A DNA stretch of 26,892 nt from a virus. Lineage: Duplodnaviria > Heunggongvirae > Uroviricota > Caudoviricetes. Location: the IMG/VR virus record IMGVR_UViG_2534682096_000007. One strand, written 5' to 3'. Each line of letters begins with the position of its first letter. Within the stretch, counting starts at the first letter, position 1. This document shows positions 2,778 through 25,347 of the stretch, one piece after another. Under the pieces are notes generated by a model that worked only from the letters and a program-made list of their open reading frames with translations, did not search any database and was not told the DNA's origin. The translations under genes were made by a program, and so were the position numbers.

Positions 2778-2865
2778 ATAGATGTTCGGGCCTTACGCTA
2801 ATGTAACTTCTTTCCTTCTTCGAACCAAACCGTGTACACCATCCGTTATCTGCGGAGGTGAGGCT

Positions 2866-3081
2866 ATGAAATCCATGGATAAGTTAACAACGGGCATCGC
2901 CTACAGCACCTCTGCAGGCAGTGCTGGCTACTGGTTTTTACAGTTGCTCGATAAAGTCACGCCCTCACAGTGGGCGGCAATAGGTGTATTGGGTAGTCTG
3001 GTATTTGGCATGCTGACGTATCTGACAAATCTTTATTTCAAGATTAAAGAAGACAGGCGTAAGGCTGCGAGAGGAGAGTAA
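2866..3081 (+). CDS. class II holin / pinholin of the phage 21 S21 (EssQ/EssD) type, with dual-start motif
   Basis: 71 aa; RBS GGAGGTGAGG 2854-2863. Starts MKSMDK, i.e. Met1-Lys-x-Met4 dual start as in antiholin/holin pairs. Two hydrophobic segments ([19 protein letters not shown]; [21 protein letters not shown]) and charged C-terminus [13 protein letters not shown]. The ORF-track extension back to 2782 is rejected. Confidence 0.9.
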
Positions 3082-4421: not shown

Positions 4422-4785
4422 ATTAATATTAAATCGGATTATTTTTAGCGCTGAATGTGAAATTTAAATAAAAAGGACTCTTCCATGAGTCAAAATCCTT
4501 GAAATCTTAAGGGTAAGATAAAAGGTCATTAGACAGAATGACACGTTTTATTAATAAATAAAGCTATTGTTTCATTCGTGTGTTTTTCTTTACAAAAGTA
4601 ATCCTTGCTATGGTTGGTTAATCATGCGTTAATGGTGTTCTGGTTTGTTACAAAATTATCTGAAGCAGTCATTGTTATAATTTTATTATTTGTACCTCTT
4701 GAGATTTCCTTGTTGGTTTTTCTCTCTGATATTTTTTTTTCGGACCATTCTGCCCAAGGGCTAACTTCTTCAAAAGGTAATAATG
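4422..4785 (+). promoter_or_regulatory. long AT-rich leader and promoter region of the csp gene (cspA-family style 5' UTR)
   Basis: About 360 nt of AT-rich non-coding DNA directly upstream of a CspA-family gene; cspA-family genes are known to have long structured 5' UTRs. Promoter and cold-box elements are not mapped, so exact boundaries are unknown. Confidence 0.35.
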
Positions 4786-4998
4786 ATGTCTAACAAAATG
4801 ACTGGTTTAGTGAAATGGTTTAACCCTGAAAAAGGTTTTGGTTTCATCACGCCGAAAGATGGTAGCAAAGATGTGTTTGTGCATTTCTCAGCTATTCAGA
4901 GCAACGATTTCAAAACGTTAACTGAGAATCAGGAAGTCGAATTTGGTATTGAGAACGGACCTAAAGGCCCTGCAGCTGTTCATGTAGTGGCACTTTGA
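4786..4998 (+). CDS. CspA-family cold-shock protein (CspB/CspI-like, prophage-borne)
   Basis: 70 aa [42 protein letters not shown]... with RNP1-like KGFGFI and RNP2-like VFVHF motifs. AAGG 4774-4777 upstream. An extra in-frame ATG lies at 4783. Confidence 0.92.
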
Positions 4999-5202
4999 GG
5001 TAGAAAATATTACAAACCATATTCACTTTAGATGCCCGTGTTGCCATGGTTCTCAGTATAGAACATCATCTTTTGATGTTTCTGACAGAAATCCTTTCGG
5101 GGCAAAATGTATCTTTTGTAAATCAATGATGATTACATTTGATAATATTTCACAATACTTAAATGTTAGCCATCTGTCGTTAGATTTAAGAAAGTGAAAA
5201 TG

Positions 5203-5500: not shown

Positions 5501-5672
5501 TTTGATTCTAATGCATTGATAATAAATGATAATCATCTTTATCTGTTTGTGTGAAATTTAGACCGTCATATGTTGATTATTGCGATGTTTCATCTTATCT
5601 TTTATACGTTTGCTCCATATAATTGACACTACTGTGTACCAGGACAGTCATAACAGACTAAAAGAGGAAATG

Positions 5673-5846
5673 ATGAACATTGAAGAGTTAAAAACAAAAA
5701 CAGAAGCAGATATTTCTGAATATATAACAAAAAAAATCATTGAGCTTAAGAAAAAGACCGGGAAAGAAGTTACCTGTATCCAGTTTACTGCACGGGAAAA
5801 AATGACTGGTCTTGAAAGCTATGATATCAAGATTGATTTAATCTAG
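5673..5846 (+). CDS. gnsB: GnsA/GnsB-family protein
   Basis: 57 aa MNIEELKTKTEADISEYITKKIIELKKKTGKEVTCIQFTAREKMTGLESYDIKIDLI, matching the Gns family in length and sequence as recalled. RBS AAGAGGAAA 5661-5669. The ORF-track start at 5580 is rejected. Whether it is the A or B paralogue is uncertain. Confidence 0.8.
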   Translation: MNIEELKTKTEADISEYITKKIIELKKKTGKEVTCIQFTAREKMTGLESYDIKIDLI

Positions 5847-6141: not shown

Positions 6142-6348
6142 ATGCATAAAGATCAATACACTGATGCCCCCTCCCAGGAGCAGGTTCGTGTAAAAACTAT
6201 GCTTAATAGCACCATTTCGATGGGTTACCCGGATGTTGTAATTGCATGTATAGAACATCAAGTATCTCTGGAAGCATTCAGGGCAATTGAGGCCGCGTTA
6301 GTAAAGCACGATAAGAATACGAAGGATTATTCCCTGGTGGTTGACTGA
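6142..6348 (+). CDS. hypothetical 68-aa protein
   Basis: GGAG at 6130-6133 sits 8 nt upstream of ATG 6142. Single ORF in an otherwise non-coding stretch between gns and the terminase genes. No family recognised. Confidence 0.4.
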
Positions 6349-6710
6349 TCACCATAACTGCTAACCATTCTGACCATTTCACAAGTGACAGAGTCAATAT
6401 CGTATTCTGTCACTGTAAGGCTAATACAGTACTGCAATTCAACTACAGCAATGCCTCGTATTTAGGTGAATTTACAATATCGTCCAGTTCGGATGCCGGC
6501 TGCATTTCTGAAGATAAGGCATTTCGGTTCGCGTATTTTCCCCTCATGCTCGTCAGTCCTGCGCGTAGTAAGAAACAGGACACTCACACTAATTTGTGTG
6601 GGCATGCTGTGATGTCCTTCTGAATTATCCCCATGCCATTATGTAACGCTCTGTTTCAGATGCTCGTCACGGTTGTCAGGCTGTCGGGTCCTCCCAGTGG
6701 GGGTCCCTGC

Positions 6711-6797
6711 CACGGGGCGGGAGCGTCGCGGAAAAAGGCTAGTTTTTGAAATTTTATTCGTCATCACCACTACTGTAATTGATTGATATTACAGTGG
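6711..6797 (+). other. putative cos site (cosN-like cleavage region plus downstream terminase-binding region) with a flanking inverted repeat
   Basis: CACGGGGCGGGAGCGTCGCGG (about 6711-6731) resembles the lambda cohesive-end region (ACGGGGCGGCGACCTCGCGGG as I recall it). Downstream TTCGTCATCAC resembles lambda TTCGTCATAAC. An 8-bp inverted repeat ACTGTAAT-N8-ATTACAGT lies at about 6766-6796. Located about 100-190 nt upstream of terS, the normal position of cos for a GpA-type terminase. Confidence 0.45.
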
Positions 6798-6900
6798 TTT
6801 TATTTTTATGGTGTCGATTCTGATTGTTTTTTGTTCATCACTAACACCGTTTGCCTAAAGTTGTTCGCAAGATGCATGTTTAAAACATTCTGGAGCGGGT

Positions 6901-7395
6901 ATGGATCGAGAGTTAAAAAATCTGACGCTGAATATCAGTCAACTGGCGGCATTGTCAGGTGTACATCGCCAGACTGCTGCGGCAAGGCTGCAAAATCTAC
7001 CCGTTGCAGGGGGGCATGAAAGCAACCTCAAGCTTTATCGGGTGGTTGATATTGTGTCGGCATTTCTGGCATTACCACCGCCGGTTGCAGAAGGCGAAAT
7101 GGACGCGCATGAGCGCAAAGCCTGGTATCAGTCTGAACGTGAGCGTCTTAAGTTCGAACAGGAAACGGCACAACTCATTCCGGCCAGTGATGTCAGACGG
7201 GAGTTTGCCATCTGGGCAAAAGCGGTCGTGCAGGTGCTGGAGACATTACCGGATATTCTTGAACGTGACTGCGGTCTGCAGCCTGCCGCTGTGAGCCGTG
7301 TTCAGTCCATTATTGATGATCTGCGCGATCAGATAGCCCTGCGGGTGACTGAAGCAGGTGCGGATGATGAGGAGGAATTACAGCAGGAGGAGTAA
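6901..7395 (+). CDS. terminase small subunit (DNA-packaging protein, HTH-containing)
   Basis: 164 aa. Lies immediately upstream of the large terminase, with its stop overlapping the TerL start (TAATG at 7393-7397). N-terminal HTH-like segment NISQLAALSGVHRQTAAARL and acidic C-terminus. GGAG 6892-6895 upstream. Confidence 0.7.
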   Translation: MDRELKNLTLNISQLAALSGVHRQTAAARLQNLPVAGGHESNLKLYRVVDIVSAFLALPPPVAEGEMDAHERKAWYQSERERLKFEQETAQLIPASDVRREFAIWAKAVVQVLETLPDILERDCGLQPAAVSRVQSIIDDLRDQIALRVTEAGADDEEELQQEE

Positions 7396-9497
7396 TGCTG
7401 AATCAGGAAACCGCAAAGGCAGCACGAACCGATTCAGGTTATATCCTTCGCGCACCGAGTCGAATGCGGGTTGCTGATGCCGTTGCTCAGTATATGCGGG
7501 TGCCTATGGGGGCAGGGAACTCAGTCCCGTGGGATCCGCTGGTGGCACCGTATGTTATTGAGCCTATGAACTGCCTGGCCTCGCGTGAATACGACGCAGT
7601 GATATTTGTTGGCCCGGCACGAACCGGCAAGACTATCGGCCTGATTGACGGCTGGGTGATTTACAACGTGATTTGCGATCCTGCTGATATGCTGATCATT
7701 CAGATGACGGAGGAAAAAGCCCGCGAACACTCCAAAAAACGACTCGCCAGAACGTTTCGCGTCAGCCCGGAAGTGGTCAGTCGCCTGAGTCCGAACAAAA
7801 ATGACAACAACGTTTATGACAGAACATTCCTTGCTGGCAACTACCTGAAAATCGGCTGGCCGTCAGTCAATATCATGTCTTCATCAGATTATAAATGCGT
7901 GGCGCTGACGGATTATGACCGTTTTCCGGAAGATATTGATGGTGAGGGGGATGCCTTCTCTCTTGCCTCAAAACGTACCACCACATTTATGTCCAGTGGT
8001 ATGACGCTGGTGGAGAGTTCCCCCGGCAGGGATGTGAAGGATGTGAAATGGCGACGGACTTCACCGCATGAGGCTCCACCAACCACGGGGATCCTGTCGC
8101 TCTATAACCGTGGCGATCGCCGTCGCTGGTACTGGCCCTGTCCACACTGTGGTGAGTATTTTCAGCCCTGCGGCGATGTGGTTGCTGGTTTCCGTGATAT
8201 TGCCGATCCTGTGCTGGCAAGTGAGGCGGCTTATATTCAGTGTCCTTCCTGTTCAGGACGGATTTTGCCTGAACAAAAACGCGAGCTGAACGGACGTGGG
8301 GTCTGGTTACGGGATGGTGAATCCATCAATGCAGATGGCAGTCGTTATGGTGATCCCCGGCGTTCACGTATTGCGTCATTCTGGATGGAGGGTCCGGCAG
8401 CTGCTTATCAGACACTCTCGCAACTCGTTTACAAACTGCTTACTGCAGAACAGGAATACGAGACAACCGGAAGTGAAGAGACACTCAAGACGGTTATCAA
8501 TACCGACTGGGGATTACCTTATCTTCCCCGCGCCAGCATGGAGCAACGAAAAAGTGAATTGCTTGAGCAGCGGGCAGAGCCAGTTCCTTCCCGCAGTGTG
8601 CCGGATGGCGTTAATTTCCTTGTGGCGACAGTGGATGTGCAGGCGGGACGTCATCGCCGTTTTGTGGTTCAGGTAACGGGCTATGGCAGCCGTGGCGAAC
8701 GCTGGATTATTGATCGTTACAACATCACGCAGTCATTGCGCGGTGACAGCGACGGGGAGAGCCAGCGAATTGATCCGGCCAGCTATCCGGAAGACTGGGA
8801 TGTCCTGCTGACGGATGTTTTTCATAAAAGCTGGCCGCTGGCCTCCGATCCTTCTCAACAAATGCGACTGATGGCAATGGCGGTGGACTCCGGCGGTGAA
8901 GACGGGGTCACTGATAATGCCTATAAATTCTGGCGTCGTTGCCGTCGTGATGGCCTTGGTAAACGTATTTACCTGTTTAAGGGTGACAGCATCCGGCGCG
9001 CAAAACTGATCAGCCGTACATTCCCTGATAACACCGGACGAACGGGCCGCCGGGCGCAGGCCGCAGGTGATGTGCCGCTCTGGCTTCTTCAGACGGATGC
9101 CCTGAAAGACCGGGTGAATAACGCGTTATGGCGTGACTCGCCAGGTCCCGGCTATGTGCATTTCCCTGACTGGCTGGGGAGCTGGTTTTACGACGAACTG
9201 ACGTATGAAGAGCGGAGCAGTGACGGGAAATGGAGTAAGCCGGGTCGCGGTGCCAACGAAGCTTTTGACCTGATGGTGTATGCCGAGGCTCTGGTCATTC
9301 TGCATGGATACGAAAAGATCCGCTGGCCGGATGCACCGGAGTGGGCGAGCCGGGAAACCTGGCTGGAGTGTGTCCCGGACAGTACCGAACCGTCACCCAC
9401 ACCGGAACCGGTATCCACGCCTGTTAAAAAACAAAAACGGAAGAAAACAGTAACTGACGATGTTAACCCCTGGCTGACTTCCGGAGGATGGTTATGA
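7395..9497 (+). CDS. terminase large subunit, lambda GpA family
   Basis: 700 aa. Walker A P-loop VGPARTGKT near the N-terminus; size and architecture of GpA-type terminases; followed by gpW-like and portal genes. RBS AGGAGGAG 7385-7391. Confidence 0.9.
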   Translation: MLNQETAKAARTDSGYILRAPSRMRVADAVAQYMRVPMGAGNSVPWDPLVAPYVIEPMNCLASREYDAVIFVGPARTGKTIGLIDGWVIYNVICDPADMLIIQMTEEKAREHSKKRLARTFRVSPEVVSRLSPNKNDNNVYDRTFLAGNYLKIGWPSVNIMSSSDYKCVALTDYDRFPEDIDGEGDAFSLASKRTTTFMSSGMTLVESSPGRDVKDVKWRRTSPHEAPPTTGILSLYNRGDRRRWYWPCPHCGEYFQPCGDVVAGFRDIADPVLASEAAYIQCPSCSGRILPEQKRELNGRGVWLRDGESINADGSRYGDPRRSRIASFWMEGPAAAYQTLSQLVYKLLTAEQEYETTGSEETLKTVINTDWGLPYLPRASMEQRKSELLEQRAEPVPSRSVPDGVNFLVATVDVQAGRHRRFVVQVTGYGSRGERWIIDRYNITQSLRGDSDGESQRIDPASYPEDWDVLLTDVFHKSWPLASDPSQQMRLMAMAVDSGGEDGVTDNAYKFWRRCRRDGLGKRIYLFKGDSIRRAKLISRTFPDNTGRTGRRAQAAGDVPLWLLQTDALKDRVNNALWRDSPGPGYVHFPDWLGSWFYDELTYEERSSDGKWSKPGRGANEAFDLMVYAEALVILHGYEKIRWPDAPEWASRETWLECVPDSTEPSPTPEPVSTPVKKQKRKKTVTDDVNPWLTSGGWL

Positions 9498-9706
9498 ACC
9501 AGAATGATATCGAAGCCATGATTCAGCGTTATACGGAAGCTGAAATGGCGGTGCTGGACGGAAAATCCGTCACCTTTAATGGTCAGCAGATGACCATGGA
9601 AAACTTATCTGAGATCCGGCAGGGACGGCAGGAGTGGGAGCGCCGCCTTGCGGCTCTGATTACACGACGACGGGGGCATCCCGGGTACCGGCTGGCGAGG
9701 TTCTGA
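9494..9706 (+). CDS. head-tail joining protein, gpW-like
   Basis: About 70 aa ending ...ITRRRGHPGYRLARF, resembling the lambda gpW C-terminus (...RRRGPAGFYV as I recall it). GGAGG 9483-9487 precedes ATG 9494; an alternative ATG lies at 9488. Stop overlaps the portal start. Confidence 0.75.
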   Translation: MNQNDIEAMIQRYTEAEMAVLDGKSVTFNGQQMTMENLSEIRQGRQEWERRLAALITRRRGHPGYRLARF

Positions 9707-11214
9707 TGGCAATTCTTGATGATGTGATTGGCGTTTTTTCACCAGGATGGAAAGCGGCAAGGCTGCGTTCCCGTGCGGTGATCCAGGCTTATGAGGCCGT
9801 AAAAACGACACGGACACACAAAGCCCGGCGGGAAAACCGAACTGCCGACCAGTTAAGCCAGTACGGGGCCGTGTCGTTACGTGAGCAGGCCCGTTACCTT
9901 GATAACAACCACGATCTGGTTATTGGTGTATTTGACAAGCTGGAAGAACGGGTGGTGGGGAAAAACGGGATTATTGTCGAGCCACATCCGGTATTACGCA
10001 ATGGGGCCATTGCCCGTGATCTGGCAGCGGAGATACGCACCCGATGGAGTGAATGGTCTGTCAGTCCGGAAGTCACCGGGCAGTTTACCCGTCCGATGCT
10101 GGAACGTCTGATGCTGCGTACCTGGCTGCGCGATGGTGAGGTGTTTGCCCAGATGGTTTCCGGGCGCATAAACAGCCTGACGCCTTCTGCCGGTGTTCAT
10201 TTCTGGCTGGAGGCGCTCGAGCCGGACTTTATTCCCATGACCAGTGATGAGAGCAACAGGCTGAATCAGGGCGTGTTTGTTGATGACTGGGGGCGTCCCG
10301 AAAAATATCTGGTGTATAAAAGCCGTCCCGTATCCGGGCGGCAGATGGAAACCAAAGAAGTGGATGCAGAGCGAATGCTGCATCTTAAATTTGTTCGCCG
10401 TCTGCACCAGATGCGCGGGACGTCTTTGTTGTCCGGTGTGCTGATCCGCCTCAGTGCCCTGAAAGAGTATGAAGATTCTGAGCTGACTGCAGCAAGGATC
10501 GCCGCTGCTCTGGGGATGTACATCCGGAAAGGCGACGGGCAGAGCTATGAACCGGATGGTAATGACAGCAAGGAGAATGAACGCGAGCTTACCATTCAGC
10601 CAGGCATTATTTACGACGATCTGAAACCCGGCGAAGAAATCGGAATGGTGAAGTCGGATCGTCCCAATCCTAACCTTGAAACTTTTCGTAATGGTCAGTT
10701 GCGTGCCGTGGCGGCGGGCAGTCGTCTGAGTTTTTCCAGTACGGCACGCAACTATAACGGCACTTACAGCGCCCAGCGTCAGGAGCTGGTTGAATCCACT
10801 GATGGCTACCTGATCCTGCAGGACTGGTTTATTGGTGCCGTCACCCGCCCGATGTATCGTGCCTGGCTGAAACAGGCTGTGGCATCCGGTGTTATCAGGC
10901 TACCCCGCGATCTTGATCGTTCTTCACTGTATACCGCGGTGTATTCCGGACCGGTGATGCCGTGGATTGACCCTGTTAAGGAGGCTGAGGCCTGGAAAAT
11001 TCAGATTCGTGGTGGAGCGGCGACAGAATCAGACTGGGTACGTGCAGGTGGTCGTAATCCGGATGATGTCAAACGTCGGCGCAAGGCCGAAATTGATGAA
11101 AACCGCAAGCTGGATCTGGTATTTGATACCGATCCGGCCAGTGATAAAGGAGGCAGCAGTGCCGCAACGAAACGACAGGAGCCGCAGCACACCGACGACC
11201 AGTCCGAAGAATAA
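9706..11214 (+). CDS. portal protein (lambda gpB-like)
   Basis: 502 aa starting at ATG 9706, which overlaps the gpW stop (TGATG). Size and position are typical for a portal between gpW and the head protease. The upstream extension to 9634 in the ORF track is rejected. Confidence 0.85.
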   Translation: MAILDDVIGVFSPGWKAARLRSRAVIQAYEAVKTTRTHKARRENRTADQLSQYGAVSLREQARYLDNNHDLVIGVFDKLEERVVGKNGIIVEPHPVLRNGAIARDLAAEIRTRWSEWSVSPEVTGQFTRPMLERLMLRTWLRDGEVFAQMVSGRINSLTPSAGVHFWLEALEPDFIPMTSDESNRLNQGVFVDDWGRPEKYLVYKSRPVSGRQMETKEVDAERMLHLKFVRRLHQMRGTSLLSGVLIRLSALKEYEDSELTAARIAAALGMYIRKGDGQSYEPDGNDSKENERELTIQPGIIYDDLKPGEEIGMVKSDRPNPNLETFRNGQLRAVAAGSRLSFSSTARNYNGTYSAQRQELVESTDGYLILQDWFIGAVTRPMYRAWLKQAVASGVIRLPRDLDRSSLYTAVYSGPVMPWIDPVKEAEAWKIQIRGGAATESDWVRAGGRNPDDVKRRRKAEIDENRKLDLVFDTDPASDKGGSSAATKRQEPQHTDDQSEE

Positions 11215-11227
11215 TTCCTGGTTCAGG

Positions 11228-13186
11228 ATGCAGGCAGGTCACCAGAGTGACGCGGATATTTATATTTATGACGAGATTGGTTTCTGGGGTGTTACAGCGA
11301 AGCAGTTTATCAGTGATCTGAATGCACTGGGCGATATCACCCACATTAATCTCCATATTAATTCACCGGGTGGCGATGTCTTTGAAGGCATCGCCATTTT
11401 TAATGCACTGAAAACACATGGTGCGTCCATTACCGTTTATGTCGACGGTGTGGCGGCGTCAATGGCGTCGGTCATTGCGATGGTGGGAAACCCGGTCATT
11501 ATGCCGGAAAACTCCTTCATGATGATTCATAAACCATTTGGCTTTACGGGCGGTGATGCGGAGGACATGCGCACCTATGCCGACCTGCTCGATAAAGTTG
11601 AGGCGGTTCTGTTACCCGCTTATGCACAGAAAACCGGGAAAACCACCGATGAAATTGCTGCCATGCTGGCGGATGAGACCTGGATGTCCGGTGCCGAATG
11701 TCTGGCACAGGGATTTGCTGATCAGGTGACACCAGCCGTTAAGGCAATGGCATGTATTCAGTCAAAACGTACAGAGGAATTTAAAAAGATGCCGGAATCC
11801 ATTCGAAACATGATTACTCCGCCACGCAACAGTGCTCCACGCGTACAGGATGATGAACCTGCAGCCTCCCGGACGCCAGTGCAGGCAGCAGCACCCGTGG
11901 TGGATGAAAACAGTATCCGTGCGCAGGTACTGGCAGAGCAAAAAGCGCGTGTAAACGGTATTAATGATCTGTTTGCCATGTTTGGCGGGCGTTATCAGAC
12001 GCTGCAGGCCCAGTGTCTTGCCGATCCTGAATGTTCGCTGGAGCAGGCCCGTGAAAAGCTGTTGAACGAGATGGGGCGCGAGTCCACGCCATCCAATAAA
12101 AATACCCCGGCTCATATTTATGCCGGTAACGGTAATTTTGTGGGGGACGGGATTCGCCAGGCGCTGATGGCGCGTGCCGGATTTGAAAAAACCGAACGTG
12201 ATAATGTCTACAACGGGATGACCCTGCGTGAATATGCCCGTATGTCACTAACTGAACGGGGTATTGGGGTTTCCGGTTATAACCCGATGCAGATGGTCGG
12301 TGCGGCGTTCACACACAGTACGTCTGACTTCGGTAATATTCTGCTGGATGTTGCGAACAAAGCCATTCTGCAGGGCTGGGAAGATGCCCCTGAAACCTAT
12401 GAACAGTGGACGCGGAAAGGTCAGTTGTCTGATTTTAAAATTGCCCATCGTGTGGGTATGGGGGGCTTCAGTGCTCTACGTCAGGTGCGTGAAGGGGCGG
12501 AATATAAATACGTCACCACCGGAGATAAACAGGCCACTATTGCACTGGCGACCTATGGCGAGCTGTTCAGTATCACCCGTCAGGCCATTATCAATGATGA
12601 TCTGAATATGCTGACCGATGTCCCGATGAAACTGGGCCGTGCGGCGAAATCCACTATTGCCGATCTGGTTTATGCCATTCTGACGTCTAACCCGAAAATC
12701 TCCACAGATAATGTAAGTCTGTTCGATAAAGCGAAACATGCAAACGTACTGGAGAGCGCTGCAATGGACGTGGCATCGCTGGATAAAGCCCGCCAGTTGA
12801 TGCGCGTTCAGAAAGAGGGGGAGCGTCATCTGAATATTCGTCCTGCGTTCGTACTGGTACCGACGGCGATGGAGTCTGTTGCTAACCAGGTCATTCGCTC
12901 CTCAAGTGTCAAGGGGGCTGACATTAACGCCGGTATTATTAACCCGGTGAAAGATTTTGCGACCGTTATTGCAGAGCCTCGTCTTGATGATAACAGCCAG
13001 ACCACCTTCTACCTGGCTGCGTCAAAAGGCTCCGATACGATTGAAGTGGCTTATCTCAACGGTGTGGATACGCCATATATTGATCAGATGGAGGGCTTCA
13101 GTGTGGATGGCGTGACAACGAAAGTGCGTATTGACGCCGGTGTCGCGCCAGTTGATCACCGCGGTCTGGTGAAATGTACGGCGTAA
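11228..13186 (+). CDS. fused prohead protease (ClpP-like, S14/S49) and major capsid protein
   Basis: 652 aa from ATG 11228, just after the portal stop. N-terminal about 190 aa is ClpP-like with catalytic-serine motif GVAASMASV. Central helical linker. C-terminal about 330 aa is major-capsid-like. The track start at 10967 overlaps the portal gene and is rejected. Confidence 0.8.
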   Translation: MQAGHQSDADIYIYDEIGFWGVTAKQFISDLNALGDITHINLHINSPGGDVFEGIAIFNALKTHGASITVYVDGVAASMASVIAMVGNPVIMPENSFMMIHKPFGFTGGDAEDMRTYADLLDKVEAVLLPAYAQKTGKTTDEIAAMLADETWMSGAECLAQGFADQVTPAVKAMACIQSKRTEEFKKMPESIRNMITPPRNSAPRVQDDEPAASRTPVQAAAPVVDENSIRAQVLAEQKARVNGINDLFAMFGGRYQTLQAQCLADPECSLEQAREKLLNEMGRESTPSNKNTPAHIYAGNGNFVGDGIRQALMARAGFEKTERDNVYNGMTLREYARMSLTERGIGVSGYNPMQMVGAAFTHSTSDFGNILLDVANKAILQGWEDAPETYEQWTRKGQLSDFKIAHRVGMGGFSALRQVREGAEYKYVTTGDKQATIALATYGELFSITRQAIINDDLNMLTDVPMKLGRAAKSTIADLVYAILTSNPKISTDNVSLFDKAKHANVLESAAMDVASLDKARQLMRVQKEGERHLNIRPAFVLVPTAMESVANQVIRSSSVKGADINAGIINPVKDFATVIAEPRLDDNSQTTFYLAASKGSDTIEVAYLNGVDTPYIDQMEGFSVDGVTTKVRIDAGVAPVDHRGLVKCTA

Positions 13187-13272
13187 ACGTCGCAGACAAC
13201 AACTCTGATGGCCCGTAAGGGCTTTTTTTGTACCTGAAATCAGCCCCTGAACGGGGCTGTGCGGAGACAGTT

Positions 13273-13596
13273 ATGGCAAAGAATTTTGTAGAAGAAGGAA
13301 AAACGGTGGCGATTGTTGCCAGTGCAGCCATCAGCAGCGGAGATCTGGTGCAGGTGGGCGATGTTTTTGCGGTGGCGCTGACCGATATTCCACAGGGTGA
13401 AACAGGCGACGGCATGACCGAAGGTGTGTTTATGCTGCCTAAGCTGAAAACGGATGACATGAAAACGGGTAAGAAGGTTTATCTGAAGTCCGGAAAAGTT
13501 CAGCTGACTAACAGCGGCTCTGATCCGCTGGTCGGGGTTGTCTGGGCAGATGCCGGAACCAGTGCAGAAGAAGTGCCGGTAAAACTCAATGTCTGA
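13273..13596 (+). CDS. DUF2190-like small phage head protein (putative decoration/cement protein)
   Basis: 107 aa from ATG 13273 (RBS GGAGACAG upstream), directly after the capsid gene. Gly/Val-rich, predicted beta-rich. Family assignment is tentative. Confidence 0.5.
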   Translation: MAKNFVEEGKTVAIVASAAISSGDLVQVGDVFAVALTDIPQGETGDGMTEGVFMLPKLKTDDMKTGKKVYLKSGKVQLTNSGSDPLVGVVWADAGTSAEEVPVKLNV

Positions 13597-13864
13597 TCCC
13601 TTTTCCCGGCTGGCAGCGCGTATGGATGCTATCACGGTTAGAAAGATGGGAAAGACAGCCTCGATTAATGATGTCGATATGACTGTGATCCCGGGAGAAA
13701 CACTGGCAGAGCTGAATGCTCTGTCCGGACCTGCGGTCTCTCTGGTGGTGTTTTCTTCGGGATACCGCCCACGGCGCGGGGATCGCGTTGTTTATGACGG
13801 ACAACAATGGACGGTCACACGGCATGAACGTTTTAACGGTAAGCCAATGATCTTTATTGAGTAA
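13589..13864 (+). CDS. small head-tail connector / tail attachment protein (in the lambda FII position)
   Basis: 91 aa. Start overlaps the preceding stop (translational coupling). Sits between head genes and tail gene Z. Assignment is positional. Confidence 0.4.
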   Translation: MSDPFSRLAARMDAITVRKMGKTASINDVDMTVIPGETLAELNALSGPAVSLVVFSSGYRPRRGDRVVYDGQQWTVTRHERFNGKPMIFIE

Positions 13865-13875
13865 AGAGGTGTGGG

Positions 13876-14454
13876 ATGAAGGGGCTTGAGAATGCCATCC
13901 GTAATCTGAACAGCCTTGATACCCGTATGGTGCCACAGGCCAGCGCATGGGCGATAAACCGTGTGGCACAGAAAGCGGTCTCGGTCGCCACCCGGCAGGT
14001 TGCCGGGAATACCGTTGCGGGAGATAACCAGGTGAAAGGGATCCCCCTGAAACTGGTACGTCAGCGTGTCCGGGTGTTTAAAGCCAGTCCGTCAGGAAAA
14101 ATGACGGCCAGGATCCGCGTTAACCGGGGCAATCTGCCCGCTATTAAGCTGGGGACAGCCCGGGTCAGACTGGCCCGGCGTGGTGGAAAACAGCAGTACC
14201 GTGGCAGTGTGCTGAAGGTGGGTAAATATCTTTTCCGGGATGCGTTTATTCAGCAACTGGCGAATGGTCGCTGGCATGTGATGCGGCGTATTGATGGCAA
14301 AAATCGTTACCCCATTGATGTGGTGAAAGTCCCGCTGTCCGGACCGCTGACACAGGCATTTGAAGATGCCCGCGACCGCATTATTGCTGCGGAAATGCCG
14401 AAACAGCTGGGGTATGCACTGAAACAACAACTGAGGTTATGGCTGACCCGATGA
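13876..14454 (+). CDS. Z: minor tail protein Z (tail terminator/completion)
   Basis: 192 aa, the same length as lambda gpZ, and first gene of a lambda-order tail cluster. RBS AAAGAGG upstream. Confidence 0.8.
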   Translation: MKGLENAIRNLNSLDTRMVPQASAWAINRVAQKAVSVATRQVAGNTVAGDNQVKGIPLKLVRQRVRVFKASPSGKMTARIRVNRGNLPAIKLGTARVRLARRGGKQQYRGSVLKVGKYLFRDAFIQQLANGRWHVMRRIDGKNRYPIDVVKVPLSGPLTQAFEDARDRIIAAEMPKQLGYALKQQLRLWLTR

Positions 14455-14852
14455 ACCGACATACACAAATCCGCCAGGCCGTACTGGCACGCCTTCGGGA
14501 ACAGTGTGGAGACAGCGCCACGTTTTTTGACGGGCTTCCGGCATTTATTGATGCGCAGGAACTGCCTGCCGTGGCGGTGTGGCTGAGTGATGCTCAGTAC
14601 ACCGGAAAAATGACGGATGAAGATGACTGGCAGGCTGTTCTGCATATTGCTGTCTTCATCCGGGCACAGGCACCGGATTCAGAGCTGGATATGTGGATGG
14701 AGAGCACCATTTTCCCGGCCCTGAATGATATACCGGCACTTTCCGGACTCATCGACACCCTGATCCCTCTCGGTTTTAACTATCAACGTGATAATGAGAT
14801 GGCCACCTGGGCGATGGCGGAAATCACGTACCAGATCACGTACACGAATTAA
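14451..14852 (+). CDS. U: minor tail protein U (tail terminator)
   Basis: 133 aa from ATG 14451; contains ...ATFFDG.P...PAVAV.L....YTG......W.A.LHI.VF..AQ.PDSELD.WMES.I.P...DIPALS.LI... closely matching lambda gpU as recalled. An upstream in-frame ATG at 14439 is an alternative start. Confidence 0.88.
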   Translation: MNRHTQIRQAVLARLREQCGDSATFFDGLPAFIDAQELPAVAVWLSDAQYTGKMTDEDDWQAVLHIAVFIRAQAPDSELDMWMESTIFPALNDIPALSGLIDTLIPLGFNYQRDNEMATWAMAEITYQITYTN

Positions 14853-14863
14853 AGGAGGTGGCA

Positions 14864-15607
14864 ATGACCACACCAAATCCACTGGCAAAAACGAAAGGTG
14901 CGGGAACGACGTTCTGGATGTACACCGGCAAGGGCGATGCGTTTGCGAACCCTTTATCGGACACTGACTGGCTGCGTCTTGCGATGGTGAAGGATCTGCA
15001 ACCTGGCGAAATGACCGCTGATGCAGAAGATGACACTTATCTCGATGATGAAGATGCAGACTGGAAAACGACAACCCAGGGGCAGAAATCCGTCGGTGAT
15101 ACTTCGGCGACGCTGGCCTGGCGTCCGGGTGACAGCGGGCAGAAAAAACTGGTTCAGTTGTTCGACTCCGGTGAAGTCTGCGCGTTTCGTATCAAATATC
15201 CCAACGGCACTGTTGATGTTTTCCGTGGCTGGCTGAGCTCACTGGGTAAAACCATTGCCTCAAAAGACGTGATGACCCGCACAGTGAAAATCAGCGGTGT
15301 GGGGCGTCCGTATCTGGCAGAGGAAGGCACTGAAACAGTGAGCGTTACCGGGCTGACGGTGGCACCGGCATCTGCCAGTGTAAAAGTGGGAGCAACCACC
15401 ACGCTGACCTTTACAGTAAAACCTGACGGAGCCAGTGACAAAGCGATCAGTGTGCATTCGACAGATCCACAGACTGCCACGGTGACCCTGAACGGGCTTG
15501 TGGCCACGGTGAAAGGCGTGAAGCAGGGCAGTGTCAGCATTGTGGGCATGACTTCTGACGGCGATTTTGTGGCAGTGGCTGCGGTGGCTGTCAGCGCCGC
15601 AGGTTAA
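14864..15607 (+). CDS. V: major tail protein V (with C-terminal Ig-like domain)
   Basis: 247 aa from ATG 14864 (RBS AAGGAGG 14852-14858). ...KGAGTT.W.Y.G.GD..ANPLSD.DW.RLA.VKDL.PGE.TA...DD.YLDDEDADW... closely matches lambda gpV as recalled. Confidence 0.92.
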   Translation: MTTPNPLAKTKGAGTTFWMYTGKGDAFANPLSDTDWLRLAMVKDLQPGEMTADAEDDTYLDDEDADWKTTTQGQKSVGDTSATLAWRPGDSGQKKLVQLFDSGEVCAFRIKYPNGTVDVFRGWLSSLGKTIASKDVMTRTVKISGVGRPYLAEEGTETVSVTGLTVAPASASVKVGATTTLTFTVKPDGASDKAISVHSTDPQTATVTLNGLVATVKGVKQGSVSIVGMTSDGDFVAVAAVAVSAAG

Positions 15608-15627
15608 CAGGACGATACTCATCATTT

Positions 15628-15651
15628 GCCCCGGTTATCCGGGGCTTTTTT
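15628..15651 (+). terminator. intrinsic-terminator-like hairpin between V and G
   Basis: Perfect 7-bp stem GCCCCGG (15628-15634) / CCGGGGC (15639-15645), loop TTAT, then TTTTTT. Confidence 0.6.
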
Positions 15652-15667
15652 GCAGGTGGAGAACATG

Positions 15668-16054
15668 ATGTTTCTGAAACAGGGCACGTTTAATTATGAA
15701 AAGCAGTCCGTGGTGCTCAGTGAGCTGTCCGGGCTGCAGAGAATTGAATATCTGGCGTTTGTTCAGCAGCGAACGGCAAAGTTTGATGCCGAAGAGGGAG
15801 AACTGCCGGAGGCTGAACGACAGATTGCTTTTCTGCGGATGGGGATGGATATCAATGCCTGGCTGGTTTCCCGCTCACTGTGGAATGCGGAACAGTCTCA
15901 GGATGTTGAGACGCTTTGCGCATCCGTTATTACAACATGGTCGTATGATGCCCTGGGAGCGGGGGCGGAGATGGTTCTGTCGCTGAGCGGTATGGGAGTC
16001 ATTGAGAATGCCGGGGATTTGGAGCATGAGGTGCTGACGCCGGAAAAGTCCTGA
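15668..16054 (+). CDS. G: tail assembly chaperone G
   Basis: 128 aa from ATG 15668 (MFLKQGTFNYEK...SVVLSELSGLQRIEYLAF...), matching the lambda gpG N-terminus MFLKTESFEHNGVTVTLSELSALQRIEHLA as recalled. RBS GGTGGAG 15655-15661. The track start at 15626 lies inside the terminator hairpin and is rejected. Confidence 0.88.
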   Translation: MFLKQGTFNYEKQSVVLSELSGLQRIEYLAFVQQRTAKFDAEEGELPEAERQIAFLRMGMDINAWLVSRSLWNAEQSQDVETLCASVITTWSYDALGAGAEMVLSLSGMGVIENAGDLEHEVLTPEKS

Positions 16055-16392
16055 CGCGGGAAATGCAGTTTGTCATGCGGCTTGCCCGGGAGTTCCGGCG
16101 GGCAGACTGGCGGCGGATGCTGTCGGAAATGTCGGCCACTGAGCTTGGTGAGTGGGGCGATTATTTCCGGATGCAGAGCTTCAGTGATGTGTGGATGGAT
16201 GCGCAGTTTGCCTCGCTGAAGGCATTGATCGTGAGAATGGTGTCCGGTAGCAGTGATGCTGCGGTGGCTGATTTCAGCCTTTTACCGGAAGAGAACGGGA
16301 TACCGGAGCGAACGGACGAAGAACTGATGCATCTTGGGGAAGGTATTTCCGGAGGTGTGCGTTATGGACCAGATAGCCAACTTGGTCATTGA
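15668..16392 (+). CDS. T: tail assembly chaperone GT, predicted product of a programmed -1 ribosomal frameshift from G into the T frame
   Basis: The T reading frame (stop at 16390-16392) is the -1 frame relative to G and is open from 16030, overlapping the last 8 codons of G. A slippery-like heptamer G_GAA_AAG lies at 16042-16048 (lambda uses G_GGA_AAG). There is no credible independent start/RBS for T; ATG 16063 is internal. Confidence 0.6.
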
Positions 16393-19300
16393 TTTGGGGA
16401 TTGATGCGGCAGAGTTTAAAAATGAAATTCCCCGTATCAAAAACCTTCTGAATGGTGCAGCCAGCGATGCAGAACGGTCTTCTGCCCGTATGCAGCGTTT
16501 TATGGAGCGTCAGACTCAGGCCGCCCGGCAGACAATGCAGGCGGCTTCTTCGGCTGCAACAGCCGCATCCGTCCATGCGCAGACGGTGGAGAAGAGCGCA
16601 CAGGCTCATGAACGCATGGCCCGCGAGGTGGAGCAAACCCGCCAGCGTATGGAGGCACTGAGCCAGAAAATGCGCGAGGAACAGGCGCAGGCCATGGCTC
16701 TGGCGGAGGCTCAGGATAAAGCGGCTGCCGCGTTTTATCGTCAGATTGACAGTGTGAAACAGGCCAGTGCGGGGCTGCAGGAATTACAGCGTATTCAGCA
16801 GCAGATCCGACAGGCCAGAAACAGTGGCGGGATTGGTCAGCAGGATTATCTGGCGCTGATTTCTGAGGTTACGGCGAAAACCCGTGTTCTTACGCAGGCT
16901 GAGGAAGAGGCTACCCGACAGAAAGTGGCGTTTATCCGTCAGCTTAAAGAGCAGGCAACCCGCCAGAATCTTTCTTCTTCTGAGTTGCTTCGTGCTAAGG
17001 CTGCCCAGCTGGGGGTAAGCAGTGCTGCAGAAGTGTATATCCGCAAAATGGAGCAGGCAGGAAAAGCCACGCATTCGCTGGGTCTGAAAAGTGCAGCGGC
17101 CCGCCAGGAGATTGGCGTTCTGATAGGTGAACTGGCCCGCGGCAATTTAGGGGCGCTGAGGGGATCCGGGATAACGCTGGCTAACCGTGCCGGATGGATA
17201 GACACTCTGATGTCACCGAAAGGCATGATGCTTGGCGGGGTTATTGGCGGTATTGCCGCGTCCGTCTATGGTCTGGGTAAAGCCTGGTATGACGGTCAGA
17301 AGGAGGGGGAAGAATTTAACCGCCAGTTGTCGCTGACGGGGCATTATGCCGGAGTCACTGCCGGGCAGCTGTGGACGCTCAGTCGTGCTATTTCCGGGAA
17401 TGGTATCACGCAACATGCTGCAGCCGGTGCGCTGGCTCAGGTGGTGGGGAGTGGTGCATTTCGTGGAAACGATATCGGTATGGTGGCGAGAGCTGCCGCA
17501 CAGATGGAGCGATCGGTTGGCCAGTCGGTCAGCGATACCATAAATCAGTTTAAGCGGCTGAAGGATGATCCTGTAAATGCCGCGAAGGCTCTGGACAATG
17601 AGCTGCATTTTCTTACTGCCACTCAGCTTGAGCAGATACGTGTCCTTGGGGATCAGGGACGGTCCAGTGATGCTGCACGGATAGCCATGTCTGCACTGGC
17701 AGAGGAAACCGGTCGGCGTACTGCGGATATTGATAATAACCTCAATGCGCTTGGCAGTACGCTGAAGTATCTGTCTGATTTGTGGAGTCGTTTCTGGGAT
17801 GCGGCCATGAATATTGGTCGTGAAGACTCGCTGGATGAACAGATTGCCGCTTTACAGGAGAAAGTGTCGCGGGCGAAAAGACTCCCCTGGACGGCATCAT
17901 CTTCTCAGGTTGAATACGATCAGCAGCGTCTTAACGATCTTCAGGAGAAAAAACGCCAGAAGGATTTGCAGGATGCAAAAGAGCAGGCAGAGCGGAATTA
18001 TCAGGAGCAACAGAAACGACGTAATGCTGAAAATGCTGCACTGAACCGGATGAATGAAACGGAAGCAGCACGACATCAGCGTGAAATTGCGCGTATTAAT
18101 TCCATGCAGTACGCCGATCAGGCTGTCAGGGATGCAGCGATACAACGTGAAAATGAACGTTACGAGAAAGCCCTGGCATCCGGTAAGAAAAAAACACGCG
18201 AAACCCGTAATGATGAGGCCACCCGGTTATTGCTGCAGTACAGTCAGCAACAGGCACAGGTGGAAGGACAGATTGCTGCTGCAAGACAGTCAGCAGGCAT
18301 TGCCACTGAAAAGATGACAGAAGCGCATAAACAGCTTCTGGCTCTGCAGCAGCGCATCAGCGATCTGGACGGGAAAAAACTGACGGCAGATGAAAAGAGT
18401 GTGCTGGCCCGTAAAGATGAACTGATTCAGGCACTGACGCTGCTGGATGTAAAACAGCAGGAGCTTCAGAAACAGACGGCACTCAACGATCTGAAGAAAA
18501 AAACAATTCAGCTGACCAGTCAACTGGCTGAAGAAGAGCGCGCTCAGCGTCAGCAACATGACCTGGATATCGCCACGGTGGGTATGGGTGATCAGCAGCG
18601 GCAGCGATATCAGGTACAACTGAGTCTTCGCCAGAAATACCAGCAACAGCTGGAGCAGTTGAGGCGGGATAGTGAGCAGAAAGGGACATATAACACGGAT
18701 GACTACAGAAAGGCCGAGCAGGCGCTGACGGAGAGCCTGAACCGACAACTGAATGAGAATCGCCGTTACTGGCAACAGCTTGAAGTTGTGCAGGGTAACT
18801 GGAAAAACGGAGTCCTGCGTGCATTTCAGGATTTTACCGTGGATGCAGATAATACGGCAGGAACAGCAGAACAGGTGTTCTCGTCAGCCTTCAGCAACAT
18901 GGGAAATGGCCTGGCAACTTTTGTCACTACCGGCAAACTCAATTTCAAATCCTTCACCTCTTCTGTGCTGTCAGATATGGCGAAAATCCTGGCGCAGGCA
19001 ACCATGATGAAATCGATAAAAGGGATTGGCAGTGTACTGGGATTTGATCTCAGCAGCCTTTCCCTGAATGCCAATGGGGGGATTTATCAGTCTGCTGATT
19101 TGAGTCGTTACAGTGGCACGGTGGTTAACCGTCCGACGTTTTTTGCTTTTGCAAAAGGCGCGGGTGTGATGGGTGAAGCGGGACCTGAAGCCATTCTGCC
19201 TCTGCGTCGTGGTGCTGACGGTAAGCTGGGGGTTGTGGCGGATATTGGTGGTTCAGGTATGGCGATGTTTGCCCCGCAGTACAACATCGAGATCAATAAC

Positions 19301-19429
19301 GATGGCACGAACGGGCAGATAGGTCCGGCTGCCCTGAAGGTGGTTTATGACCTTGGGAAAAAAGCGGCAGCGGACTTTATGCAACAGCAGGCCCGTGATG
19401 GTGGTCGGTTAAGTGGAGCATATCGGTAA
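16364..19429 (+). CDS. H: tail tape measure protein (gpH-like)
   Basis: 1021 aa from ATG 16364 (RBS GGAGG 16351-16355). Long, Ala/Gln/Arg-rich coiled-coil protein in the tape-measure position between G/T and M. Confidence 0.9.
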   Translation: MDQIANLVIDLGIDAAEFKNEIPRIKNLLNGAASDAERSSARMQRFMERQTQAARQTMQAASSAATAASVHAQTVEKSAQAHERMAREVEQTRQRMEALSQKMREEQAQAMALAEAQDKAAAAFYRQIDSVKQASAGLQELQRIQQQIRQARNSGGIGQQDYLALISEVTAKTRVLTQAEEEATRQKVAFIRQLKEQATRQNLSSSELLRAKAAQLGVSSAAEVYIRKMEQAGKATHSLGLKSAAARQEIGVLIGELARGNLGALRGSGITLANRAGWIDTLMSPKGMMLGGVIGGIAASVYGLGKAWYDGQKEGEEFNRQLSLTGHYAGVTAGQLWTLSRAISGNGITQHAAAGALAQVVGSGAFRGNDIGMVARAAAQMERSVGQSVSDTINQFKRLKDDPVNAAKALDNELHFLTATQLEQIRVLGDQGRSSDAARIAMSALAEETGRRTADIDNNLNALGSTLKYLSDLWSRFWDAAMNIGREDSLDEQIAALQEKVSRAKRLPWTASSSQVEYDQQRLNDLQEKKRQKDLQDAKEQAERNYQEQQKRRNAENAALNRMNETEAARHQREIARINSMQYADQAVRDAAIQRENERYEKALASGKKKTRETRNDEATRLLLQYSQQQAQVEGQIAAARQSAGIATEKMTEAHKQLLALQQRISDLDGKKLTADEKSVLARKDELIQALTLLDVKQQELQKQTALNDLKKKTIQLTSQLAEEERAQRQQHDLDIATVGMGDQQRQRYQVQLSLRQKYQQQLEQLRRDSEQKGTYNTDDYRKAEQALTESLNRQLNENRRYWQQLEVVQGNWKNGVLRAFQDFTVDADNTAGTAEQVFSSAFSNMGNGLATFVTTGKLNFKSFTSSVLSDMAKILAQATMMKSIKGIGSVLGFDLSSLSLNANGGIYQSADLSRYSGTVVNRPTFFAFAKGAGVMGEAGPEAILPLRRGADGKLGVVADIGGSGMAMFAPQYNIEINNDGTNGQIGPAALKVVYDLGKKAAADFMQQQARDGGRLSGAYR

Positions 19430-19758
19430 TGGAGACGTTTCACTGGAAAGTGCGCCCGGATATGAATGTGGTATCAGAGCCGAAAGTGGTGACAGTGAAG
19501 CTGGGCGATGGTTATGAACAGCGTCGTGCGGCGGGACTGAATAACCAGTTGTCGACTTACAGCGTGACGATACGTGTTCGTAAATGTGAACACCCATCTT
19601 TAAAAGCCTTTCTGGAACGGCACGGTGGCGTCCGCGCATTTCAGTGGACGCCACCTTATGACTGGAAGCCGATCAGGGTGGTTTGTCGTAAATGGTCGGC
19701 AAGCGTAGGGGCGCTGTGGGTAACCATAACGGCAGATTTTGAACAGGTCGTGGCATAG
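19429..19758 (+). CDS. M: minor tail protein M
   Basis: 109 aa METFHWKVRPDMNVVSEPKVVTVKLGDGYEQRRAAGLN..., closely matching lambda gpM (MKTFRWKVKPGMDVASVPSVRKVRFGDGYSQRAPAGLN as recalled). Start overlaps the H stop (TAATG). Confidence 0.92.
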   Translation: METFHWKVRPDMNVVSEPKVVTVKLGDGYEQRRAAGLNNQLSTYSVTIRVRKCEHPSLKAFLERHGGVRAFQWTPPYDWKPIRVVCRKWSASVGALWVTITADFEQVVA

Positions 19759-19767
19759 GAGGCTCTG

Positions 19768-20466
19768 ATGCAGGATATTCCACAGGAAACACATCATGAG
19801 ACGACACGCCTCACTCAGTCAGCCCAGGTGGTGCTCTGGGAAATCGATCTGACAGAGGTCGGTGGTGAACGTTATTTTTTCTGTAATGAGCAGAACGAAA
19901 AAGGTGAGCCGGTCACCTGGCAGGGGTGGCAGTATCAGCCGTATCCCATTCAGGGGACGGGATTTGAACTGAACGGTAAGGGCAGTGCTGCCCGTCCGAC
20001 ACTGACGGTCTCTAACCTGCACGGCATGGTCACCGGGATGGCGGAAGATCTGCAGAGTCTGGTCGGCGGAACGGTGGTCAGGCGTAAGGTTTACGCCCGT
20101 TTTCTGGATGCGGTGAACTTCGTCAACGGAAACAGCGACGCCGATCCGGAGCAGGAGGTGATTAGCCGCTGGCGCATCGAGCAGTGCAGCGAATTGAGCG
20201 CGGTCAGTGCCTCCTTTGTACTGTCCACGCCGACTGAAACGGATGGTGCCGTTTTTCCGGGGCGCATCATGCTGGCTAATACCTGCACCTGGACCTATCG
20301 CGGTGATGAGTGCGGTTATAACGGTCCGGCGGTCGCGGATGAATATGACCAGCCGACGTCCGATATCACGAAGGATAAATGCAGCAAATGCCTGAGTGGC
20401 TGTAAGTTTCGCAATAATGTCGGCAACTTTGGCGGCTTCCTTTCCATTAACAAACTTTCGCAGTAA
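19768..20466 (+). CDS. L: minor tail protein L
   Basis: 232 aa MQDIPQETHHETTRLTQSAQVVLWEIDLTEVGGERYFFCNEQNEKGEPVTWQG...CSKCLSGCKFRNNVGNFGGFLSINKLSQ, near-identical to lambda gpL as recalled, including the Cys cluster. Confidence 0.95.
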   Translation: MQDIPQETHHETTRLTQSAQVVLWEIDLTEVGGERYFFCNEQNEKGEPVTWQGWQYQPYPIQGTGFELNGKGSAARPTLTVSNLHGMVTGMAEDLQSLVGGTVVRRKVYARFLDAVNFVNGNSDADPEQEVISRWRIEQCSELSAVSASFVLSTPTETDGAVFPGRIMLANTCTWTYRGDECGYNGPAVADEYDQPTSDITKDKCSKCLSGCKFRNNVGNFGGFLSINKLSQ

Positions 20467-20471
20467 ATCCC

Positions 20472-21784: not shown

Positions 21785-21844
21785 TGAAAAACGTTTTATG
21801 TGAAACCGCCTCCGGGCGGTTTTGTCGTTTATGGAGCGTGAGGA

Positions 21845-25328
<3,484 letters not shown>

Positions 25329-25347
25329 ATTTTATAACCCAGATACG

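Follow-up and report, generated by a model that had tools for sequence, protein, structure and literature searches.

The closest described relatives of the genes discussed here belong to the Salmonella phage Gifsy-2 and to lambdoid phages of E. coli. The 'tripartite capsid gene' of Gifsy-2 was reportedly characterised by Effantin et al. in 2010 (Virology 402:355), and the same authors are said to have found that self-processing leaves only the C-terminal capsid domain in Gifsy-2 virions. Gifsy-2 is also listed among the phages whose 3-fold axes bear a trimeric cement protein (PMC8538268). Lambdoid phages exchange their head and tail modules separately (PMC9836094), and the head proteins of mEp213 and LLS are very unlike those of lambda (a 2025 paper, PMC12315714). 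Here we describe a morphogenesis gene cluster in the IMG/VR virus record IMGVR_UViG_2534682096_000007, a stretch of 26,892 nucleotides (nt) that is called the window below and to which all coordinates refer. In this cluster, a single open reading frame (ORF) combines a ClpP-like protease with a major capsid domain. With a probability of roughly 0.93, window 6715-25995 holds the late (virion) genes of a lambdoid prophage that belongs to the mEp460/cdtI/Tritos group and has morphogenesis genes of the Gifsy-2 type.

The comparison with mEp460 (NC_019716) carries most of this assignment. The plus strand contains an unbroken run of virion genes at 6901-25995, from the terminase small subunit (TerS) through lom, and mEp460 is collinear with window 6876-24421 in a single blastn alignment at 97.4% nucleotide identity. 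When phage records were compared with window 6501-20500 by megablast, 16 of them covered at least 80% of it, the top ones being vB_EcoS-569R4, mEp460 and Ayreon at 98.5-98.8%; the megablast identity of mEp460 is 98.6% over 6876-20500. At the protein level, every product from TerS to L has a counterpart in mEp460 with 95-100% identity, among them the fusion protein of 652 amino acids (aa) (99.2%) and the 1021-aa tape measure (98.3%), and the same range holds for Z to M. This type of prophage is abundant: at least 80% of window 1893-26892 is present in 1038 of 5426 complete E. coli genomes. About one fifth of complete E. coli genomes contain the fused protease-scaffold-capsid gene, which is labelled there by RefSeq as 'ClpP-like prohead protease/major capsid protein fusion protein', and at least 591 loci in IMG/VR encode a relative of the fusion protein. 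The block is therefore an ordinary set of mEp460/cdtI/Gifsy-2-type E. coli prophage genes, previously described and annotated and thus already known. Its features are as follows.

6715 to 6726, plus strand: putative cos site GGGCGGGAGCGT, identical to the opening 12 bases of the Tritos phage record and similar to lambda GGGCGGCGACCT
6901 to 7395, plus strand: TerS (164 aa; PHROG 141 'terminase small subunit', expectation value (E) 7e-74; Pfam DUF1441)
7395 to 9497, plus strand: terminase large subunit, TerL (700 aa), of the distant lambda gpA family (Pfam GpA_ATPase 1.6e-71, GpA_nuclease 1.1e-85)
9488 to 9706, plus strand: small head-tail adaptor in the gpW position (72 aa; PHROG 118 'head-tail adaptor' 1.4e-37; 100% identical to mEp460 gp03)
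9706 to 11214, plus strand: portal (502 aa) of the lambda portal family (TIGR01539 portal_lambda, 456 bits with a cut-off of 172.7; Pfam Phage_portal_2)
11159 to 13186, plus strand: protease-scaffold-major capsid fusion (675 aa from GTG 11159, 652 aa from ATG 11228; NF045540)
13210 to 13230, plus strand: terminator-like hairpin GGCCC-GUAA-GGGCU, then U7, directly 3' of the capsid gene (pattern scan and fold)
13273 to 13596, plus strand: head decoration (cement) protein (107 aa; Pfam Phage_cement_2 9e-21; PHROG 122 'head decoration' 1.8e-47)
13589 to 13864, plus strand: head-completion/head-tail joining protein in the gpFII position (91 aa; Pfam 'Gifsy-2' PF13856 1.8e-17)
13876 to 14454, 14439 to 14852 and 14864 to 15607, plus strand: Z, U and V, lambda-type tail (Pfam Minor_tail_Z)
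15665 to 16054 and 16063 to 16392 (T frame open from 16039), plus strand: G and T, lambda-type tail
16364 to 19429 and 19429 to 19758, plus strand: H (tape measure) and M (Pfam TMP_2 and Tape_meas_lam_C among the matches of the shaft genes)
19845 to 24405, plus strand: near-lambda block by DNA and protein identity, comprising L without its 5' tenth, then K, I and J up to residue 858
21845 to 25328, plus strand: J, interrupted

The fusion gene is the most distinctive member of this set. Using residue numbers of the 652-aa protein from ATG 11228, residues 9-651 correspond to profile positions 2-651 of 652 in NCBIfam model NF045540, with a score of 986 bits against a cut-off of 475, and the protein also matches NF045542, 'head maturation protease, ClpP-related', with 217 bits. 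In Pfam it matches CLP_protease at residues 23-168 (4.6e-36), Phage_capsid_4 at 357-649 (1.4e-54) and Mu-like_gpT (3.7e-8). It is 99% identical to mEp460 gp05, 70% identical over the full length to Gifsy-2 STM1034.3n and 56% identical to its homologue in Pseudomonas phage CF145a. When all of 1.84 billion cluster representatives were scanned, 6864 proteins reached E <= 1e-30; among the best 150 relatives, more than 100 align over residues ~7-649 at 35-60% identity, and 106 diverged cluster representatives were used for the conservation alignment. The parts of the protein are listed here.

11249 to 11737, plus strand: ClpP-like (S14) protease domain, residues 8-170 (CLP_protease, NF045542, Foldseek)
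11822 to 11896, plus strand: hypervariable disordered linker, residues 199-223 (predicted local distance difference test score (pLDDT) below 50)
11906 to 12079, plus strand: three-helix scaffold-like segment, residues 227-284 (high pLDDT; conserved gap-free block)
12134 to 13183, plus strand: HK97-fold major capsid domain, residues ~303-652 (Phage_capsid_4; Mu-like_gpT)

An AlphaFold model built on the 106-sequence alignment has a mean pLDDT of 89.8; a model from 20 close relatives (75-99% identity) had a mean pLDDT of 35 and was discarded as unusable. Four parts can be seen in the good model, namely the protease to about residue 197, the disordered linker, three helices within 227-284 (227-250, 257-265 and 271-284) and the capsid from about residue 303, and the conservation profile concurs. 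Low confidence is limited to residues 199-223 and 299-301, and the former stretch is the least conserved and the richest in insertions and deletions across the alignment. In Foldseek searches the N-terminal domain matches ClpP crystal structures with a template modeling score normalised to the target, TM(target), of 0.75-0.83, and the C-terminal domain matches major capsid proteins in BFVD, including HK97-family entries (best TM(target) 0.80, root-mean-square deviation 3.2, 293 columns). A profile of the capsid half also matches the Mu GpT-domain capsid 8rkc in the PDB (E 3e-7). The three-helix segment may be the scaffold, judging from its position and from the literature on Gifsy-2.

The motif GVAASMASV occupies residues 74-82. 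In alignments with ClpP structures 1y7o and 6hwm, Ser78 (codon 11459-11461) falls on the catalytic Ser of ClpP (AASM) and His101 (11528-11530) on the catalytic His (MIHKP/MIHQP), and both residues are invariant in the 106 relatives. Position 150 (11675-11677), aligned with the Asp of ClpP, has Glu in 92 of the 106 relatives and Asp in 8. Asp149 was also considered as the third catalytic residue and was rejected, since the alignment to ClpP and to the relatives places Glu150 on the ClpP Asp. Between protease domain and linker there is a [FY]-x3-Pro motif at residues 185-189 (window 11780-11794), 3' of the protease domain, which is kept in about 90% of the 106 relatives despite variable flanks; its role could lie in processing or docking.

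The sequence-only reading of this DNA had placed TerS, the portal, the 652-aa ORF and the tape measure correctly, together with the protease motif, and its proposal that a ClpP-like protease and a major capsid domain share one ORF is borne out by the profile matches to CLP_protease, Phage_capsid_4 and NF045540, which bring out both the protease and the HK97-fold domain. It had further claimed a head unlike that of lambda, followed from Z onward by a tail nearly identical to that of lambda. We compared each gene by blastp with the lambda reference (NC_001416), and the protein identities are given below.

Head: TerS, no match; TerL, 24.5% (A); portal, 21.5% (B); fusion, decoration protein and 91-aa gene, no match
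Z to V: Z, 50%; U, 54%; V, 55%
G to M: G, 33%; T, 38%; H, 25%; M, 56%
L to I: L, 93%; K, 97%; I, 96%
J and lom: J residues 1-526, 99%; J residues 558-858, 95%; J C-terminus, 54%; lom, 42%

In blastp there is no match of TerS to lambda Nu1, of the 72-aa adaptor to W or of the decoration protein to D, and none of the head proteins matches lambda C, D, E, FI or FII. The head is thus unlike that of lambda in its protease, scaffold, capsid and decoration proteins, which are of another type than C/Nu3/D/E, but not in TerL and the portal, which are distant members of the gpA and gpB families. On the tail side every gene from Z to J matches its positional counterpart in lambda, with identities of 25-99%, so the tail (Z-U-V-G-T-H-M-L-K-I-J) is lambda-type in gene order and homology. 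At the DNA level, similarity to lambda is not detectable over 6600-14100, is 59-74% over 14100-15400, is not alignable across G, T and most of H, and is 62-66% over 19200-19800 and 87-99% from there to about 24400; blastn gives one alignment, 19291-24405, at 92%. In 40-nt windows the identity jumps from 62-75% to 92-100% at ~19840-19850, about 80 nt into L. From the DNA and protein profiles together, near-identity is limited to L through the first three-quarters of J (19845-24405), while Z to M reach only 25-56% at the protein level. Blast-detectable protein similarity does begin at Z, but near-identity only from about 19845, and the near-lambda block is also carried by mEp460. Uniform similarity to a single known phage over head and tail had been named as the observation that would speak against a mosaic origin, and mEp460 shows exactly this (97.4% over 6876-24421).

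Two further patches of the lambda comparison may be mentioned. Within gene I, a 300-nt mosaic patch at 21301-21600 is 95% identical to lambda and 62% to mEp460, in surroundings that are 96-98% identical to both. The only lambda-like DNA to the left of the tail genes lies at 6209-6493 and is an 85% match to lambda DNA that lies between the lysis genes and cos, ~400-690 nt upstream of nu1 (ybcW-like region, record PV340536).

The sequence-only reading placed a breakpoint around 13590-13880, and blast-detectable protein similarity to lambda starts exactly at Z (13876), with none for the fusion, decoration and 91-aa genes. It is conceivable that the window is a recent recombinant, in which a non-lambda head was joined there to a tail taken almost unchanged from lambda. 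Lambdoid head and tail genes do travel as separate modules (PMC9836094), and Pseudomonas phage CF145a has the portal (49% identical), the fusion (56%) and the decoration protein (41%) with no homologue of the lambda-type tail genes Z to M in the 12.7 kb of its record examined. We nevertheless regard such a recent joint as very improbable. Z to M are just 25-56% identical to lambda, no DNA similarity is left across G, T and most of H, and the actual step to more than 90% lambda identity is at about 19845. Moreover, the adjacency of the FII-like gene and Z is common to Gifsy-2, mEp213, cdtI, Tritos and mEp460, and neither the identity to Gifsy-2 nor that to mEp213 shows a step at the boundary: to Gifsy-2 it is 70% for TerL, 64% for the portal, 70% for the fusion, 61% for the decoration protein (STM1034) and 45% for the FII-like protein on the head side, and 42% for Z, 52% for U, 69-70% for V, 60-64% for H and 61% for M on the tail side. 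The boundary therefore stands as the place where similarity to lambda begins and not as a recent joint. By these comparisons, heads of this type have long been combined with lambda-type tails, an architecture shared by a large phage clade, and over a longer time scale module exchange is real, as in the case of the Pseudomonas phage.

Two other alternatives concern the fusion gene itself. A frameshift error or a lost stop might have joined separate protease and capsid genes artificially; three bases are missing elsewhere in the window, in J (~23424 and ~23504), and are missing in this way in no complete E. coli genome, and some sequence error in the window is therefore plausible. Still, the chance that the 652-aa ORF is an artefact is negligible: a single uninterrupted full-length ORF is kept in mEp460 (99%) and hundreds of prophages, in Tritos and mEp213, in Gifsy-2 (70%), in the Pseudomonas phage (56%) and in more than 100 diverged cluster representatives (35-60%), and the fusion has been described in the literature. 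Since the single frame is conserved and a curated NCBIfam model exists for it, the ORF is a genuine protease/capsid fusion, and the division into two genes that the sequence-only reading had allowed for is not borne out. The second alternative is that the in-frame ATG 11789 (Met188) serves as a second start for a protease-less scaffold-capsid protein, comparable to lambda Nu3 inside C. If so, most shell subunits would lack the protease, and the nested product would set the protease-to-shell ratio. Met188 sits between the protease domain and the disordered linker and has GAGGA about 10 nt upstream, and Gifsy-2, mEp213 and Pseudomonas phage CF145a retain the Met together with a (G/C)AGGA(G/A) motif, so that the start may act in the enterobacterial/pseudomonad branch of the fusion family. 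On the other hand, the column holds Met in only 5 of the 106 diverged fusion proteins (mostly Ala, Val, Pro, Ile or Thr instead), the conserved feature nearby is [FY]185-x3-Pro189, a constraint at the protein level, the Shine-Dalgarno-like bases are forced by conserved Glu-Glu/Gln-Glu codons, and the spacing of 9-10 nt is long. The best 80 of the at least 591 IMG/VR loci are 99-100% identical to the query, too uniform for the internal start to be assessed from their DNA. The Met188 start was thus largely rejected, and we consider it a slim prospect.

In contrast, the beginning of the fusion gene probably has to be moved upstream. GTG 11159 is preceded by AAGGAGG at 5 nt and gives 675 aa, the length of the database entry P0004, which bears the name of the fusion protein at NCBI. 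In mEp213, Gifsy-2 and Pseudomonas phage CF145a, the residues encoded 5' of ATG 11228 (...KNNSWFR) are conserved, and the codon aligned to this ATG is Ile in Gifsy-2 and the Pseudomonas phage; therefore their proteins start further upstream. From these alignments, GTG 11159 is more likely the true start; with it, the fusion gene and the portal gene would share the last 56 nt of the latter.

Among the other head genes, TerS has GGAG 5 nt upstream of its ATG and is 99% identical to mEp460 gp01 and 47% to its Gifsy-2 counterpart; the mEp460 identities of TerL and the portal are 99.7% and 99%. For TerS and the decoration protein, searches of PDB sequences returned no relatives. The 91-aa protein matches the solved Gifsy-2 structure PDB 2pp6 (STM1035; E 1e-19) and, below threshold, Phage_attach of the gpFII family (0.0018), and its Tritos homologue is annotated as head completion protein Hc1; a gpFII-like role would fit both its position and this annotation. 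The hairpin at 13210..13230 probably acts as a terminator, as mEp460 is annotated with a rho-independent terminator at the homologous position. The records of cdtI and Tritos begin at window position 6715, and cutting presumably takes place at GGGCGGGAGCGT (6715..6726) as the cos site; no lambda-like cos pattern GGGCGGCGNNCT was found near the terminase genes with one mismatch allowed. A scan for tRNA genes found none.

Among the tail genes, the tape measure had been said to be longer than lambda gpH, and this holds: it has 1021 aa compared with 853 aa. The extra length is N-terminal, as residues 289-1021 align with gpH residues 110-853. Lambda gpH is established as the ruler of tail length, and by analogy the difference would predict a tail about 20% longer than that of lambda. 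The Gifsy-2 tape measure is annotated with 995 aa, so a long tape measure is normal for the clade. In the -1 frame, T is open from 16039 onward, with an overlap between it and the end of G (window 16037-16065). The sole slippery-looking heptamer at the end of G is G GAA AAG (16042-16048), compared with G GGA AAG in lambda, and ATG 16063 is probably not an independent start of T. A second terminator-like hairpin, a strong one with 7 GC pairs and then a T run, adjoins the 3' end of V at 15628-15645, and mEp460 is annotated with a homologous terminator.

A likely assembly pathway can be proposed from these genes. A lambda-family terminase, consisting of a DUF1441-type small and a gpA-family large subunit, would cut at cos near 6715, and the DNA would be packaged through a lambda-family portal. 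The shell would be made from one polyprotein of ~675 aa (GTG 11159), in which the ClpP-like protease, the disordered linker, the three-helix scaffold-like segment and the HK97-fold capsid domain follow one another, and this polyprotein would form a T=7 procapsid with its protease and scaffold parts inside. The protease would then remove itself and the scaffold segment. Cleavage probably takes place in or near the flexible stretches 199-223 and ~290-301, leaving a capsid protein of ~350 residues, and the mature shell would consist of these C-terminal residues. The shell would expand and be cemented by trimers of the 107-aa decoration protein. The gpW-position adaptor and the gpFII-position protein would close the head, which would finally join the lambda-type tail (Z, U, V, G/G-T, H, M, L, K, I and J).

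No data contradict the assignment of the block to the mEp460 group. Several points weigh against the account given here. The cos assignment has as its basis only the start points of other phage records. In the fusion protein, no protease cleavage site was identified, and Ser78/His101/Glu150 would be a putative triad whose third residue is Glu, in contrast to the Asp of ClpP. The inward position of protease and scaffold, their self-removal, the T=7 lattice and the decoration trimers are taken by analogy from the work reported on Gifsy-2 and from HK97 and lambda assembly. Lastly, J is interrupted, so that infectious particles might not be formed by this copy; alternatively, there may be errors in the sequence.

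The interruption of J has two parts. Compared with lambda and mEp460, 2 nt are missing at ~23424 and 1 nt at ~23504 (window 23400-23520), so that 80 nt are read out of frame and a stop arises at 23492; the contexts of the deletions may be homopolymer runs. Of 4274 E. coli genomes with a match to this 161-nt stretch, none shows these deletions (the top match is 98.2%, 164 nt versus 161 nt), which are sequencing errors or private mutations. Further downstream, the lambda/mEp460-like body of J ends at ~24405-24411 and is joined out of frame to a different C-terminal (receptor-binding) allele (window ~24405-24447), which shares 99.5% identity with the J gene that prophages of O104:H4 and further strains carry. 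This junction occurs as one piece in no complete E. coli genome; it is a private recombinant or an assembly chimera of two prophages.

The left part of the window carries other genes. The 3' end of an ORF that by eye resembles an insertion sequence transposase lies at 3-431, followed by a 2-thiouracil desulfurase/DUF1722 gene at 596-1555 and a regulator of the AraC family at 1953-2675, low in GC (32-37%). The stretch 3-2675 looks like non-phage cargo where the late regulator would be expected. Downstream of it are a holin of the phage-21 type (2782-3081), DUF1327, lysozyme and i-spanin genes. At 4627-5044 / 4783-4998, an Rfam cspA thermoregulator (109 bits, gathering score 78) overlaps a 71-aa cold-shock-domain gene, and a GnsA/GnsB-family gene (5580-5846) lies 3' of it; these form low-GC cargo between the lysis genes and cos.

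As a discovery the gene block carries little weight, given that the fusion gene has its own NCBI naming model and that mosaicism of lambdoid heads and tails is textbook knowledge. What has been gained are corrections: the prophage is of the mEp460 type, the part of the tail shared closely with lambda is limited to L-K-I-J, GTG 11159 is the probable start of the capsid gene, and J is interrupted or the sequence is chimeric there.

Compared with known systems, the window is closest to the mEp460 group, represented by mEp460, Ayreon, vB_EcoS-569R4, cdtI and Tritos. It differs from mEp460 in gene I, which is nearer to lambda (96%) than to mEp460 (77%), in the C-terminal quarter of J, which is another allele (53%), in lom (85%) and in the interruption of J. 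Tritos is more distant, with 42% identity in TerS, 87% in TerL and 80% in Z.

Gifsy-2 has the same gene order as the window: TerS, TerL, adaptor, portal, Clp-capsid, 107-aa gene, FII-like gene, Z, U, V, G, T, H, M, L, K, I and J. Its protease, a middle part of ~200 residues and its capsid domain likewise share one ORF (STM1034.3n), with the portal gene 5' and with the 107-aa decoration gene, the FII-like gene and a lambda-type tail 3'. The differences are the host genus, Salmonella, a sequence divergence of 30%, and the morons lom and sodC between M and L, which the window does not have there. Also, the L-K-I-J proteins of Gifsy-2 are only 59-75% identical to those of the window, because the window has lambda-like versions.

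Lambda shares the order of terminase, adaptor, portal, protease/scaffold/capsid region and head completion genes, followed by Z to J. However, its gpC protease belongs to S49, in contrast to the ClpP-like (S14) protease of the window, and it has nested C/Nu3 genes and a separate E where the window has protease, scaffold and capsid in one gene. The decoration gene of the window, placed 3' of the capsid gene, is of the Phage_cement_2 type, and, unlike lambda, the window has no FI homologue. Finally, HK97 offers an analogy, in that a scaffold-like N-terminal extension (the gp5 delta domain) is fused to the capsid protein and removed by a co-assembled protease. In HK97 this protease (gp4) is a separate gene of another family, whereas that of the window is fused, and HK97 has a crosslinked shell and no decoration protein, whereas the window encodes a cement protein.

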